In this document: one piece after another, positions 9,477-55,798 of the stretch
Position numbering within the stretch: position 1 is the first letter of the stretch
How the letters are laid out: every line of letters starts with the position of its first letter
From: Gracilinanus agilis
Taxonomy: Eukaryota
Direction: 5' to 3'
DNA length: 64,000 nt
Assembly (NCBI RefSeq): GCF_016433145.1
Contig: NC_058132.1
Location: 140,995,284 to 141,059,283, forward strand
Notes under the pieces: model-generated
The model's database searches: none
The model's input: the letters and a program-made list of their open reading frames with translations, nothing else
What the model was told of the DNA's origin: nothing
Program-made: the position numbers and the translations under genes

Positions 9477-11249
9477 TTCTTTCCCTTGGTGAATTTTTGG
9501 ATATAGTTCCAAATTGCTTATGAATAGTTTGATCATTTCAGAGTTCTACCAATAGTGCATTTGTCTTCTCAAATCTCCTCAAAAAATGACTCTTCCATTT
9601 TTTGGTCATTTTTACTAATCTGATGGTAGTCTTTGATCATTTAATCTATTGGGGAATAGTTCTTATTCTTGTATATTTGTATTGATTGCCTACATGTTTT
9701 GGATATTAGACCTTTAGTAGAGAAATTTGCTTCAAAGATTGTTTTTTCAGTTAGCTGCTTACTTTCTAATTTTAATTGCATGAATTTTGTTTTTTTTCAG
9801 TTTTGTAGCCTACTTTTTCAGGCCTTTTACCCCATTAAAATGCTATTGATATTTTTTGATTTTACATTATCTATATTTCCCAATATAGTCTTCCTTTTCC
9901 CTATACCTTAGCAGAAAACTATTCAAAGAATAAAAGAGAAAAAAAATAACAGTTCAGTAAAACAAATTGAATATAAACCAAGTTTCTTTCAAAGGAGGAA
10001 GGAGGTCTAGGCTTATTTCTTCATTCCCCTTATTTCACTCTATGTGCCACTGATATTTGACATTCACTACACTGGCATTCCATTTTCTACCTTGCAGCTA
10101 CATAATATATTCCCTCACTTCTACCTCCAAGATTTCATAGATATCTCCAGACAGCACTCATGAACCATTTACTATAGATTTTCTCAACTTGATTGTTAGT
10201 TGATTTCTCCTTCCTCAAATATTCTTGCAAATGTGTGTTGAGTAGGGAATATGAAGGACAATAGTGCCAGTGAGGTTAGATAAAGTGGTTGGAGCTAAAT
10301 GGTAGTAGAGGGCTTTGAAGGTCAAGCTAAAGAGCTTTTATTTTATTTAACAGGCACTGAAAGAATCACTGAATACTTTTTTTGTAGGGGAATGGTATGA
10401 TCTAGAGAATGTACATTAGGAAGACTAATCTGGCAATGGCGTATAGATGGTTTAAGGGGAAGATACTGGAGAAAAGAAGATAGGTTAGATTAAATATCAA
10501 ATCAAAAACAATTTATGGATTTATTACTAGGTGTAAAGTACTTTGCTAGACGCTATTTTTTTTTTTTTTTACCCCTCAGGCCATTTTTTTTTCTCTAGTG
10601 GAATCCATCTACTATGTTATAATGGAAGTCAAAATGGAAATTGACTTTTTAGCAAACATTGAAAATCTTTGGTCCATTAATTTGGGGAAAGTGGTTCAAT
10701 TTAGTACAGCCTCTAATATAACAGACATTAGAACTTAGCCTTGATCACCCCCACTTACTTCTGTAAAATAATATTTAAAAATAACTCTAATCTTTTTTAA
10801 AAATAGGAATTTATTGGATAATTTTAAGTAAGCTTATTTCCTGAAACAAGAAAAAATTAAAGCTGAGCTGCCTGAAATGACAGGTAGGTTTTCAATTTCA
10901 AGTGACACATTTTAAAAATAGAAATGAGAAAACAGTTCTACTAGTTTACACTCTGGTATACTTCTCACAAAACTTGTCTATTTTTTCTCTCACTTCCCAG
11001 TCTTATCAACTTCCTTTTGTCTCCCTCGGTAATATTATCTTTGTTGGGTCTCATCCCATTCTTCTCTTTGCAATTCTTGCTGTCTGAAAAAGTATATTTA
11101 GAGAGTATATTTATAAGCATCATCAAAATTCATACCCAACAGGCAGGCTGTCTTTTTGCAGATTACTTACCCTTCCTCTTACATCACCGAGCTAAATATA
11201 TATGTATATATCGAGTCTTTACTTTTCTCTAATTCTTTCTTTGGTATTG

Positions 11250-11360
11250 TACTTTGGGGAAATCATTTGTACTCTCTGGCCTCAGTTTCCCCAACTGTAA
11301 AATAAGGGAATAGGACTTTGAAGTCTTACAAGATCTCTTCTAACTTTAATACTGTGTTCC
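11250..11360 (+). mobile_element. MIR fragment just upstream of the CpG island
   Basis: GGCCTCAGTTTCCCCAACTGTAAAATAAGG CORE motif. Confidence 0.65.
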
Positions 11361-12365
11361 CGTGTAGCTTTCGACCCTCGTACGCCGTTTTGAAAGAAAA
11401 ACTAGACTTTGCAAATGATTTGGGTCACTTTGCTAACAAGGTGAGTTTTTCCCCATTCCCACCCCAAGGAACGGAAGGGCAAGTTTTGTCCCTGACTCTT
11501 CTCAGACACTACCCTTGGGGCAAGGGTGGGTTGGAAGTTTAGCCCCCAAATCCCACCTTGGGGTCTGAATTGCCCAAGTGAATCAGGCAAACACCCAACT
11601 TTCTATAACATCTTCCTAACTGTCTCGACCACCTCAGCTGCTCTGGCTTCCCGGACTCAAATCCTCGATTCTTAGAGAAGGGAAATGAGGGAACCTTTAG
11701 TAGAAGAGCACTAGGACCCGGAGGGAAGTGCCGATGGCGGAGGCTTCGCTCTTCCCCACCCCCTAAGGCCCTACCCCGCCACACGTTGGGGGCGGGGTTC
11801 TGAAGGCCCGTGGGGAGGAGGAGGAGGAAGAAGAGAAGTAGAGGGCGGTGCCTCGTGCGCGTGTGGCCGCTAGGGTTCCGCGGGCTGGTGGCTGGGGGCG
11901 GAGCTTGCTGGCTTCTAGCTGCGGGGCGGAGGCGGAGGAAGTGCCGGCCGCTCGGATTGTCGGTTCCCGGGGCGCGGCGAGTGGGTGGTGCCGGAGTTGC
12001 CTGGACAGGCCGGGCATTAGGGCCCCGGCGGAGCTCTCTCCCCAGTCCGTGCTGGGCGGGGTGCGAGGCGGGCAGGAGCGGGCCCCGGAGGCAGCGGCTG
12101 CGCTCTGAGCCGGGGAGGAGCCGCAGCCCGAGCCCGAGCCGGAGCCGGGGGCGGGGGCCGAGGCTGGGCTGCCGGAGCACTGGGGTCCGACGTTTGCTTG
12201 GGTTGGTCTTTGGGTCGGTCGGCCAGTCCTTCAGTCAGCCGGCTGGGCTGAGGCTGTTGGGCAGCCGGCGGTGAGGGCGGTGGCCCCCCTGCCCTGCTCC
12301 TCCTCCCCCGCGCCCGGTGCTCGGAGCCCGGCGCTGCTGCCGCCGCCGCTGTGATTGGGTGGAAG

Positions 12366-12392
12366 ATGGCGCTGGGCGGATGGAAATCCTAA
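12366..12392 (+). promoter_or_regulatory. Out-of-frame overlapping uORF (MALGGWKS*) spanning the USP12 start codon
   Basis: ATG GCG CTG GGC GGA TGG AAA TCC TAA, context AAGATGG. The stop TAA shares its last base with the in-frame Met5 ATG (12392-12394). Translation is not proven. Confidence 0.7.
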
Positions 12393-12427
12393 TGACAGTC
12401 TCCAAATTTGCTTCCATCTGTACCATG
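12380..12427 (+). CDS. USP12: Ubiquitin carboxyl-terminal hydrolase 12, first coding exon (16 codons, phase 0)
   Basis: Translates to MEILMTVSKFASICTM, the N-terminus I recognise from mammalian USP12 (paralog USP46 starts MTVRNIASICNM). Lies in a CpG island and is followed directly by donor GTAGGT at 12428-12433. Confidence 0.95.
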
Positions 12428-12764
12428 GTAGGTGGGAGCTGCGCCGGGAGCGGGCGTCCCGCGGGAACTCCTGACCTTCCTCTGCCCGCGGCCGCCCCGG
12501 ACACCGCGGGGCCTAGGGCGGCCCGGGGCTAGAGGAGCCGGTCGACCGGGAACGGTCCGGGTCTAGGGCCAGGGCCAAGGCCGGGCGACGCGAGGAGGAG
12601 GGCGAGGGCGGTGGTTACGGGCTCCTCGGTGGAGAGAGAAGACGCGAGCAGAGGCTGCCGTTAGAGGAGGCACAGGCGGGCATTGGAGTGCTCGGACGCT
12701 GGGGCGGCGGGAGCCATTAGAGGCCTCCCTGGACCGGCCGGCGTGTGCGTTTGCGCGCGCGTGT

Positions 12765-13430
12765 GTAAAAAATAGTGGAGGCTCCTCTCGGCATATGTGT
12801 GTATAAGATATTGGAGGCTTCTCACCATGTAGATGTGAAAGAAATAGGTTGGACGTTTTTTTCCTCCCTCCCCGTGTGTGTATTTGTGTTTTGTGTCTTA
12901 AGTTATGGGAGGCCTTCCCCTTAGCATAATAAGTGTGTGAGTTTGGAGGCGTGTGTGTTTGTAAGTTATTGGACGCTTTCCCTTCACAGCATGTATGAAA
13001 AGAGGGATTGCACTTCTATTTCCTCTGCTAGTTATGAGGGCGATTGAGGAGGTTTCCCTTTCATCGGCGAGTGTGTGCGTGAGGGTGTGTAAGTTATTGG
13101 AGGTCTTTCCTTTTACATGCGAGTGTGAGTTTGGAGGTATGTGAATAAGTTATTGGAGGTCTCAGCATGCGTGTGTGAGTTTGATGGCGCGCATGTGTTT
13201 GTAAGCTATTGGAGGCTTTCCCTTCAGCATGTGTATGACAGAGATATTGGACTCTTATTCCCTCAGAGAATGTGTGAGAGCAATTGAGGAGGCCTCCCTC
13301 CGAGTGTGTGTAAGATATTGGAAGCTTTCTCCTCAGCCTATGTGTACATGAAAGGAGGTTCCATGTGCGATATTTAAGGCTTGTGCCTATGAGGGTGAGA
13401 TATAGTGGAGTTTTCCTTCTCAGCTTATGT
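12765..13430 (+). repeat. Degenerate tandem array in proximal intron 1, core (GT)n-TAAG(T/A/C)TATTGGAGG(C/T)TTTCCC
   Basis: Core copies at about 12804, 12899, 12962, 13090, 13146, 13202, 13241 and 13311, plus weaker ones. A higher-order duplication of about 240 bp is visible (12923-13100 vs 13163-13325). Confidence 0.85.
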
Positions 13431-16536: not shown

Positions 16537-17781
16537 GTTTATTGAGATTTTAGCAGTTATTTTAATAATATATCATGTATATCATGTAATCCTTGTGAGG
16601 ACAATTGACTAGATAACACATTTAGATGGATTCAGAACTATTTTCCTGGCCAGATTAAATGTCATCTTGGTGGGAGGTTTCCCAAGGAGTGCCCCAGGGA
16701 TTTGTTGTTGACTTTTTTGTTTTTAAAATAGTAATTTGGGTAAAGGTATAGATGGCATGCCTATCAGATTTGCAGATGACACCAGACTAGGAGGGATAGT
16801 TACCACACTGGATGACAGAATTAGAATCTAGAAATCAACTTGATATGTCTAGAATATTGGGCTGATTTAGTAAAATAAACTTCAGTAGAGATAAATGTGA
16901 AGTCTTATGTTTGGATTTGAAAAACAACTTGACAAGACTAGGTTCGGGGATCATGATGAAATAGTACTGTGGTTATTTTGAAATAGACAGGGGGGTGATA
17001 TTGGTGGATTACATGCTTAACAAGAACCAGCCAGTGTGATATGGCAAAAAAGTTAATATCACCTTGAGATGTATTTAAAGAGGCATAACTTCAAGGAATA
17101 AGGAGGGGATGGTCCTCCCACCCCCAGCTCTTGTTAGACCTTGTCTAGATTATTGTGTCCATTTCCAAGACCCATATTGATAAGCTGGAGGGGGTAACCA
17201 AGATGCTTAAGGACCATGAATACATGTCCCCTGAGGATCACTTGAAACAACTTGGGTATGTTTAGCTTTGGGGAAAAGAGTGGAAACCAGATGAGTGGAA
17301 ATCAGATAGCTGCCTTTAAATACTTATGTCATTTCAAAGAGGGGTTATACTTGTTTTTATCAGTCCCAAGGTGTAGAACCAGGAACTATGTATATATGAA
17401 AGTTGCAAAGAGGCATATTTGGGCTTAATGTCAAAAAAAAAAACAAACAAAACTTGCTAACAATTAGAGCTATAGAATTTCCTAGTAGAATTCTATTCTA
17501 GTAGAATCTGCTTAGAATTCATTAGTAGAANNNNNNNNNNNNNNNNNNNNNNNNNNNNNNNNNNNNNNNNNNNNNNNNNNNNNNNNNNNNNNNNNNNNNN
17601 NNNNNNNNNNNNNNNNNNNNNNNNNNNNNNNNNNNNNNNNNNNNNNNNNNNNNNNNNNNNNNNNNNNNNNNNNNNNNNNNNNNNNGAAGCAGGATAATTA
17701 CTTGTCAGATATGCTATACTGGAGATTTATTTTGAAATGAATGGCTGCTGAGGTCCCTTCCAATTCTTAGATTCTGTGATT
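16270..17781 (+). mobile_element. L3/CR1 LINE remnant with a decayed RT domain and its 3' end
   Basis: TTT GCA GAT GAC at 16769-16780 reads IRFADDTRLGG. CR1 3' terminus GAGGTCCCTTCCAATTCTTAGATTCTGTGATT at about 17750-17781. Contains (TG)n and an N gap (17531-17685). Confidence 0.85.
16485..16533. repeat. (TG)n microsatellite, about 24 units
   Basis: Directly visible. Confidence 0.95.
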
Positions 17782-27623: not shown

Positions 27624-28550
27624 TGTTGCAGTTTGAGAGTGGTGAAAGCTGGGTTTGTCCCAAGAACTAAAAATTCCTACTGTTCATGGCAGGAAGTGTA
27701 GTTTTTATTGGGTGCAATTGCTAAGTTTAAAATGGCCAGAACGGCGCAAGAAAAACCACTGCTGGAAAAAAGCTGCTCTTGGGCAAAAATACTGCACTTG
27801 GAAAAAAGCTGCTTTGTGCTCTGGGAGAGAGGCCACCCCACTTTGTGGCTGCTCTCCAGCCCCTGGTCCATCTGGGCAGGTCTGGGCAAAGGTGGGGAGG
27901 AGGCACAGGGAAACAGGTTGGTTATGAATGATTTAGTACCAGGCACCCAGATGCAGCACTGCTTGTATTCAGGTTTCTGGATTTTTATTGAGAGTCTGGG
28001 GGATTCTCTCCTCCCATCCTTGGGAATTCTTCACCTTTCCTCTGATTATTCCTCCCCTGGACATTCATTCTAGGAGGCATTCTAGGCTGAGAAGTGGGGG
28101 AAGAGAGGGTATGAACATGGGTATGTTTTAGGGGTTGATATGGCATGAAGTGAATGTTAGGGCACGAAAAGAGCGAAAGGGGCATGTACAGGGCTTGGGG
28201 GATTCCCTCTAATCATAAAGATTTTCTTTTAATTGCAAAGATAACCATTGTGCATTGTTTGTTTTAAATTCCGGGAAGTGCTATTTGGAAGTGTCTAGCA
28301 GACTCCCTATGGACACGTGGGGGCTTTGAGACTACATTACCCATGATTCCAATGGGTCTTAGGGTATGGGTACGTCAAAGGTCAAAGGTCCCCACGCGGG
28401 GGGGGGGGGCAGTTTAGATTCAGAGGAGGGCCTAAACAAGGCCCTTGATCTTCCTGAGGAGCTGGCTGGCCTGCGGGAGAGAGGATGGGTTCCATCGGTA
28501 AAAGCTAGACAGTCGCGGTCATATATATATATATATATATATTACCAACA
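27624..28550 (-). mobile_element. ERV LTR, relatively young
   Basis: TGTTG...CAACA termini, minus-strand AATAAA about 75 bp from the 3' end, retained CpGs. Interrupts an L3 remnant. Right boundary uncertain. Confidence 0.65.
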
Positions 28551-29015
28551 TGGCCATGGCTTTTGTTAAAATACTAATTTCTATTATTATATCAGTCTTT
28601 ATCATTTTTAATCGTAACAGCATGTGTGACAAAGATAACCAGTGTGCATGTTCCTTCCCTTGTCCAGTTATTCAACTTTCAAGGTTGTTTGGGTGTCCTT
28701 TCTCAGCCTTGCAAAGCTGTTATCAACTGGGAGAAAGTCATAACATTATCTGTTGACTTTCAAGTNATATATATATATATATATATATATATTACCAACA
28801 TGGCCATGGCTTTTGTTAAAATACTAATTTCTATTATTATATCAGTCTTTATCATTTTTAATCGTAACAGCATGTGTGACAAAGATAACCAGTGTGCATG
28901 TTCCTTCCCTTGTCCAGTTATTCAACTTTCAAGGTTGTTTGGGTGTCCTTTCTCAGCCTTGCAAAGCTGTTATCAACTGGGAGAAAGTCATAACATTATC
29001 TGTTGACTTTCAAGT
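28521..29015. other. Exact duplication of about 245 bp either side of a single N (28766): probable assembly artefact
   Basis: 28521-28765 and 28767-29015 are identical apart from (AT)n length. Confidence 0.85.
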
Positions 29016-41565: not shown

Positions 41566-42308
41566 TGTAAGAGGGAAATTTAGGTATTTTATAGATATGT
41601 ATTTAAAGTGTGGCCTCCAGAAATCAACAATTCAGGTTGATTCCGTAATTAAATCAGACCCAAGTCAGCAACAGGTTAAGGCAGTTTATTTACATCTAGG
41701 AAGGTAAAGGTATGGGAATAAAGAGGAAGGGAGAGGCTAGTCCAGGCCATCCGAGGCCTGGAGGAGAGAGAAGGTTAAGGTATGGGAATAAAGAGGAAGG
41801 GAGAGGCTAGTCCAGGCCATCTGAGGCCTGGAGGAGAGAGAAGGTTAAAAGGCTAAATAAATTAGGCTGCAAGCCTCTAGGCCTAGCAACCAGATAGGCT
41901 AATGCCTACTTAAGGCAGAGTTTGGAAGTGGCCTAGGTAGGCCAAGGAAGTCAGCCTAACTTACCCATGTGACAATACAGAGTAGAAGCTGTCTGTGGTC
42001 TCAGGAGCTCCTTCAGCACCAAGTTCAAGGCGGGAACTGCCTCCACAGGAAGTCACCAACATACTTAAAGAGATGGTGTCTTTCGTCACTTCTCGTGGGT
42101 CCACCTCTAATTCAAGTGGACAAATGGCAGTCTCCCCATTGATTTGGACTGCCCAAAGGGCCGTCCCCTGTACCTGATTTGCCACTCATTGTCACGTGTG
42201 GGCAACTCGTCTCCCCTCCCCGCCACGGAAGGCGAGGGTGATGTCATTTCCATGCCTAGGCTAAGTCCGAGTTTAACTAGGAATGGGCTAGAGCCAATTC
42301 CATTTACA
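41566..42308 (-). mobile_element. Young solo ERV LTR (743 bp)
   Basis: TGTAA...TTACA ends, TSD CCAGTA / CAAGTA, minus-strand AATAAA (41685-41690), many intact CpGs, internal 70-bp tandem duplication. Confidence 0.88.
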
Positions 42309-55370: not shown

Positions 55371-55798
55371 TGATTTAGATTAAGGTAACCTGTAGCACAA
55401 AGTTCCAAGCACAGTCAATTTATTGGTAAGCCTAGCAGGTATTAATAAAAGGATTCTTTAGTGCTTCAATAAGGTAAAAGACCTCAAATCATTGCAGACA
55501 TCATTTGTACAGACTAAAGGAGAATCCAAACTAGATGCAGCTTTATAGATGAGGAAAGCAATATGATTCCTTACAAAGTCAGAAGCATCATAGATTGGGG
55601 GTGGTGGTGTCCAAGAGGCTTAGCAGCAAATCTTCCTTTCAATTTGTCCCTATGGAAAGCTTATTAGTGGAGGCCATCTTTGTCCCTATGGAAAGCTTAT
55701 TAGTGGAGGCCATCACTGATTATGTGACTGTTGCAGAGATAACAAACCAGACTGGCATCCTTCTAAGTCCTTTTAGGATAACAGATTACTTTGGTACA
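55371..55798 (-). mobile_element. LTR-like element with a perfect 36-bp tandem duplication
   Basis: Minus-strand TATAAA (55542-55547) and AATAAA (55419-55424). Duplicated unit at 55643-55678 and 55679-55714. Boundaries uncertain. Confidence 0.5.

Follow-up and report, generated by a model that had tools for sequence, protein, structure and literature searches.

The first exon of USP12 and its overlapping uORF

The window, a 64-kb (64,000-nt) stretch of Gracilinanus agilis DNA, contains the first exon of a gene that is probably USP12, judging by the human USP12 N terminus. The name is backed by a published entry of equal, 27-nt length for an upstream open reading frame (uORF) of human USP12, described below. 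The main frame opens at 12380 and, after 16 codons, reaches the GT donor at 12428 that marks the 3′ end of the exon. A search of the six frames of the window with ten short USP-family motif patterns returned no catalytic-domain motif, so exon 2 of USP12 lies outside the window; intron 1 exceeds 51 kb, with no later USP12 exon recognizable in 12428-64000. A structured RNA downstream of exon 1 was considered and dropped, since Rfam gave no match in 12450-64000. The features of the promoter, leader, and start region are listed in Table 1.

Table 1. Features of the promoter, leader, and translation start region of USP12 (window coordinates)
Feature	Position	Strand	Remarks
CpG island, promoter and leader	11600..12999 (about 11600-13000)	.	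GC 0.54-0.74, CpG observed/expected 0.72-0.95
Four GC boxes within the CpG island	11789, 11895, 11923, 12148
Inverted CCAAT box, possible NF-Y site	12354..12358	-	only such 5-mer in 11000-12681
YY1/TISU-like motif, source of the uAUG and its -3/+4 context	12362..12373	+	10/12 match to the TISU consensus
Overlapping uORF, 8 sense codons plus TAA, +1 frame	12366..12392	+	strong start context
Met1 of USP12	12380..12382	+	medium context (C at -3, G at +4), covered by the uORF, 14 nt past the uAUG
Double stop in the uORF frame, TAA then TGA (12393-12395)	12390..12395	+	on the Met5 ATG; TGA overlaps it as ATGA
Met5	12392..12394	+	weak context (C at -3, A at +4); first base is the last base of the uORF TAA
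Met16	12425..12427	+	A at -3, final codon of exon 1, 32 nt past the uORF stop
5′ splice site of intron 1	12428..12433	+	top GT score in 11900-12900, rough matrix

The upstream AUG (uAUG) at 12366-12368 has A at -3 and G at +4, the TAA that closes its frame occupies 12390-12392, and the module that begins with the uAUG and closes with the Met5 ATG measures 29 nt. The start codon is thus upstream of the main start and out of frame with it, and the stop lies downstream of Met1, as expected of an overlapping uORF. An earlier note on this DNA had described the same geometry (the uAUG, its frame, the covering of Met1, the overlap of TAA with Met5, and the 29-nt module), and all of its coordinates proved right. 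The TGA directly behind the TAA, the weak context of Met5, and the placement of Met16 at the exon end are additions to that description. No other plus-strand ATG occurs between 11735 and 12379, so from any transcription start in that interval the uAUG would be encountered before all other AUGs. The presence of a single uAUG is ordinary: when three leader segments were each dinucleotide shuffled 2000 times, 1574 to 2000 of the shuffles contained some ATG. Its strong context is mildly unusual, with an ATG having A at -3 and G at +4 in 128, 59, and 94 of the 2000 shuffles of the three segments. The uAUG sits in the core of the YY1/TISU-like motif, which surrounds the ATG on the sense strand. It is the sole exact match to the 9-base YY1-type core in the 64 kb; the shorter, 8-base core recurs at four sites in the intron. 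The +4 base of Met16 falls in exon 2, beyond the window.

Several other features were observed in and around exon 1. Together, the CCAAT box and the YY1-like motif (12354-12373) form a possible composite promoter element within exon 1, perhaps serving a divergent transcript. A donor-like GT at 12271, in the probable 5′ untranslated region, scored 3.3 with the rough matrix, compared to 4.1 for the exon 1 donor; if it were used, the uAUG and Met1 through Met16 would be lost from the mRNA. A small leader intron beginning at 12271 was rejected, because the nearest AG preceded by a pyrimidine tract gives an intron of ~56 nt, which we take to be too short. On the minus strand, an ATG-initiated open reading frame of 63 codons (12235-12426) crosses the start region and probably arises incidentally from the GC-rich island. 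The beginning of intron 1 (12755-13430) contains a degenerate direct repeat of 6 to 8 copies with a 30- to 50-nt unit, the copies being 60 to 87% alike, irregularly spaced (~36 to 160 nt), and each provided with a GT-rich arm. Further into the intron are two-copy tandem repeats at 41700-41848 (70 nt, 97%) and 55643-55714 (36 nt, 100%). A perfect two-copy, 250-nt tandem repeat at 28521-29015, which contains a single N at 28766, is likely an assembly artifact; runs of N mark gaps at 1928-2225 and 17531-17685.

Human translation data and the paralog USP46

Ribosome profiling analyzed with RibORF (Ji et al. 2015; PMC4739776) has identified a translated overlapping uORF in human USP12 at NM_182488:243-269, which is 27 nt long and contained in one exon. 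Because it is equal in length and class, we infer that this entry is the counterpart of the uORF in the window, from a table that carries neither sequence nor start codon. The entry stands in both the “overlapping.uORF” and the “high.uORF” sheets, the latter comprising uORFs more than threefold as efficient as the canonical ORF (PMC4739776). That work computed efficiencies without the overlapping regions, so the USP12 ratio is fragile and likely derives from ~14 nt beside the start peak. Overlapping uORFs are also a common kind, reported there in 1054 genes. The earlier note had called the uORF repressive; this stood insofar as a human uORF of the same length is translated at more than threefold the level of the main ORF, and the repression of Met1 itself we infer. 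The USP12 uORF is thus a real overlapping uORF of a known kind, and it is probably both old and repressive. The literature searched yielded no mutation test of it.

Human USP46, the paralog, has one uORF in the same tables (NM_022832:122-148), and it is also 27 nt long (PMC4739776). In the one part of 130 of supplement 1 that was counted, this length occurred in 2 of 89 rows besides USP46, or in 3 of 90 with it. The USP46 uORF is filed as nonoverlapping and is absent from the high-efficiency sheet, and its row, in the available part of the tables, gives neither a start codon nor a position relative to the start of USP46. The shared length suggests that the uORF arrangement is older than the split between USP12 and USP46. 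We take USP46 to start at the equivalent of Met5 of USP12. If it does, a 27-nt uORF ending there would be the same module, in place before the duplication, which we regard as a lead rather than a result. The USP12 uORF itself was already known as a table row (PMC4739776). Our literature search, which most subscription papers fell outside, found no paper discussing the USP12 uORF or linking the uORFs of USP12 and USP46.

Predicted initiation at Met1, Met5, and Met16

We propose, with a probability of roughly 0.55, that the eight-codon uORF is a standing brake on USP12, such that Met1 is mostly missed and translation restarts at Met16 rather than at Met5. The mechanism would begin at the uAUG, which in the sequence precedes the other AUGs and, of the first three, lies in the best context; in humans, published profiling shows the uORF of equal length to be translated well above the main ORF. 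Full-length protein would then be made solely through leaky scanning past the uAUG to Met1. By the rules for short uORFs, Met5 would be skipped, because a 40S subunit must scan some way before it has reacquired initiator tRNA and Met5 overlaps the stop and has a weak context; Met16, 32 nt on, would be the first usable site. The predicted outcome is low output with Met1 and Met16 forms mixed, and an output that would drop, not rise, when ternary complex is scarce.

Met16 is an in-frame AUG in good context past the uORF stop, and we consider it the likelier site for both restart and leak-through, compared to Met5. By rule of thumb, a 32-nt spacer is short for reloading, so restart at Met16 may be small. 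A toy scanning model with assumed probabilities, which serves as illustration and not as evidence, gave Met5 the smallest share and a Met16 share that rivaled that of Met1. The suggestion in the earlier note that isoforms lacking the first four residues (MEIL) are made stays plausible, with Met5 less likely than Met16 as their start on grounds of context and distance. Among the matches listed from the HeLa initiation tables of PMC11014515, only DUSP12 appeared and USP12 was absent; the literature and tables searched yielded neither start-site nor N-terminal evidence for Met1, Met5, or Met16.

Restart at Met5 had been favored in the earlier note because of the TAATG, by analogy with influenza B M1/BM2. 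This overlap is forced by the codons of the protein, does not exceed chance, and is uninformative. Leu4-Met5 creates a stop in the uORF frame in four of its six synonymous codings and Met5-Thr6 does so in four of four, so every upstream AUG in that frame must end on Met5; the overlap was for this reason set aside as evidence of coupling between termination and reinitiation. More generally, wherever a Met precedes a codon with A in first position, a uORF in this frame will automatically have its stop overlapping the start codon, and such an overlap should not be taken for a viral type of mechanism. One could argue that Met5-Thr6 is kept for the sake of the uORF stop. Coupled termination-reinitiation at TAATG/ATGA, yielding a Met5 form without the first four residues, is nonetheless improbable. 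It can draw on the presence of both classic overlaps and, in the review PMC5972666, on the tolerance of viral (TURBS-dependent) restart sites for weak contexts, on cellular candidates (SLAMF1, GAD, and TURBS-free cases), and on the ability of DENR-MCTS1 to aid distance-independent restart after short, strong uORFs; however, the same review limits the human-cell support for DENR-MCTS1 to start-stop uORFs, states that reinitiation after short uORFs grows with distance, such that a 1-nt overlap likely precludes it, and requires for TURBS coupling a UGGGA core 40 to 90 nt upstream of the stop. No UGGGA occurs in 11900-12392. A four-of-five match to the core lies 34 nt before the stop, but it is 1 of 10 UGGG in this G-rich span and falls upstream of the uORF and outside the 40- to 90-nt zone. 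The uORF, at 8 codons and 27 nt, is also not the long upstream ORF of TURBS systems, and the transcript segment between Met1 and the exon end is nearly unstructured (-3.2 to -1.4 kcal/mol per folded segment), so no hairpin would support Met5. Stress relief of USP12 through eIF2-alpha, likewise raised in the earlier note, was not borne out by the arsenite data of Andreev et al. (2015; PMC4383229). In that single data set, with low counts, coding-sequence reads fell from 37 to 2.5 for USP12 (fold change of 0.07, or 14-fold; translation efficiency [TE] Z-score of -1.66) and from 119 to 7.5 for USP46 (fold change of 0.06; TE Z-score of -2.46), both Z-scores being within the authors' threshold of 4, compared to a median drop of 5.4-fold (~0.19) and a TE Z-score of +8.16 for ATF4. 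Neither gene was arsenite resistant, and the lean toward extra repression, which is not significant, would fit a main ORF partly dependent on quick reloading of initiator tRNA. An integrated-stress-response switch that derepresses USP12 upon eIF2-alpha phosphorylation is accordingly the least probable of the readings considered. An efficient uORF combined with weak translation of the coding sequence is a predictor of resistance named in PMC4383229, and USP12 fits it; the authors also warn that resistance can be masked in genes with low counts. Against such a switch, besides the measured responses of both paralogs, the leader has one AUG (counting AUG starts), whereas control of the ATF4/GCN4 type needs at least two uORFs, and the bypass of a single uORF proposed for DDIT3 involves a weak uAUG, unlike the strong one of USP12.

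The brake that we favor must also be weighed against explanations that lie in the DNA or in the extent of the mRNA. Since the uAUG is itself a YY1/TISU core beside an inverted CCAAT box, selection at the DNA level is a live rival, and the strongest of the alternatives is that the AUG is kept as a candidate YY1 site, its translation being a tolerated by-product with no control over isoforms. We regard this as unlikely, yet as deserving serious attention. The uAUG and its -3 and +4 bases coincide with the core, unique as an exact 9-base match in the window and 8 nt from the inverted CCAAT box; the motif is bound by YY1 and drives transcription, according to PMC2518114; and the uORF stop needs no selection of its own. 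In support of the brake, an AUG in the TISU motif showed no detectable leak in the reporters of that paper, and out-of-frame copies were predicted to be strongly inhibitory. Against the YY1 reading, a YY1 site does not require the 27-nt ORF length found in USP46, and in the human RefSeq model the motif lies at nt 243, 242 nt from the modeled 5′ end, which would put it beyond the TISU zone of +5 to +30. Moreover, the AUG is translated, whatever maintains it. If instead many transcripts began downstream of the uAUG or skipped it, the uORF would touch a minority of mRNAs. CpG-island promoters have dispersed starts, and the donor-like GT at 12271 nearly equals the real donor in score, but a start in 12367-12379 would give a leader of less than 14 nt, and the human RefSeq model includes the uAUG, with 242 nt upstream and dense footprints. 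We therefore consider this explanation highly improbable, if slightly less so than the stress switch.

If the standing brake operates with restart at Met16, the N terminus of the shorter protein becomes of interest. Residue 17 of USP12 is presumably glycine, and its surroundings would conform to the N-myristoylation rule; plant and invertebrate relatives presumably begin at the methionine equivalent to Met16. A start at Met16 would expose Gly17, which might be myristoylated. As a speculative and on balance doubtful extension, we suggest that USP12 and USP46 share a 27-nt uORF that predates their duplication and diverts ribosomes to an AUG at the end of exon 1, and that the short, myristoylated form starting with glycine is a major product, so that the choice of start codon sets the membrane-bound share of both deubiquitinases. 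A study of myristoylation (PMC10696250) gave no match to four gene or protein names in 3 of its supplementary files, a result of little weight if internal starts were not covered, and the literature search found nothing on myristoylation of USP12 or USP46. Membrane proteins are among the targets of USP12 and USP46, and both enzymes also enter the nucleus by shuttling. A review (PMC8600410) bears out one part of a further claim of the earlier note, that MEIL influences WDR20-dependent membrane localization: an N-terminal motif of USP12 is needed for WDR20-driven shuttling, and beyond this nothing of the claim was confirmed. The passages of PMC9356280 on USP12 add nothing about its N terminus. 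If the extension were true, the uORF would divert ribosomes to the ancestral, lipid-anchored form of the protein. Expression constructs that start at Met1 omit the uORF. Should the native leader yield little protein from Met1 and some from Met16, studies based on these constructs may have examined a minor form, and variants in the leader could alter the dose or location of USP12.

Comparison with known systems

The closest likeness is to the human USP12 uORF of PMC4739776, which matches in gene, class, 27-nt length, confinement to one exon, translation, and high efficiency relative to the coding sequence. In the available tables, it is a row without context, the geometry of Met5 and Met16, function, or a link to USP46. 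Out-of-frame TISU/YY1 elements (Elfakess and Dikstein 2008; PMC2518114) have the same core in the sense orientation with the AUG out of frame; the USP12 motif differs in matching the consensus at 10 of 12 positions, in lying far from the human annotated 5′ end, and in that its binding of YY1 is putative. The UAAUG/AUGA overlaps resemble those of the TURBS systems of influenza B M1/BM2 and the caliciviruses, and the short uORF of SLAMF1 overlaps by 1 nt, as that of USP12 does (PMC5972666). USP12 differs from both in having no UGGGA, a uORF of 8 codons, an overlapped AUG that encodes the second in-frame Met instead of serving as the main start, and an overlap imposed by the protein sequence. In Arabidopsis JASON, initiation at a downstream AUG yields a short form whose membrane location differs, similar to what we propose for Met16; in JASON, however, the mechanism is leaky scanning, no uORF is named in the text available, and the outcome was shown experimentally, unlike that for USP12 (PMC5853252).

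On the features tested, the USP12 uORF does not behave as TURBS-type coupling or ATF4-type control would demand. The uORFs of C/EBP-alpha and C/EBP-beta set the ratio of long to short isoforms, and the short isoforms of those proteins, which lack entire domains, have been demonstrated. These systems share with USP12 a short, out-of-frame uORF among several in-frame AUGs, with restart downstream producing a form shortened at its N terminus. In USP12, the change would amount to 15 residues, the spacer is 32 nt, and the short form is putative. Our analysis thus suggests that the USP12 uORF would act as repressive overlapping uORFs do and, probably, in the manner of the isoform-setting uORFs of the C/EBP genes.
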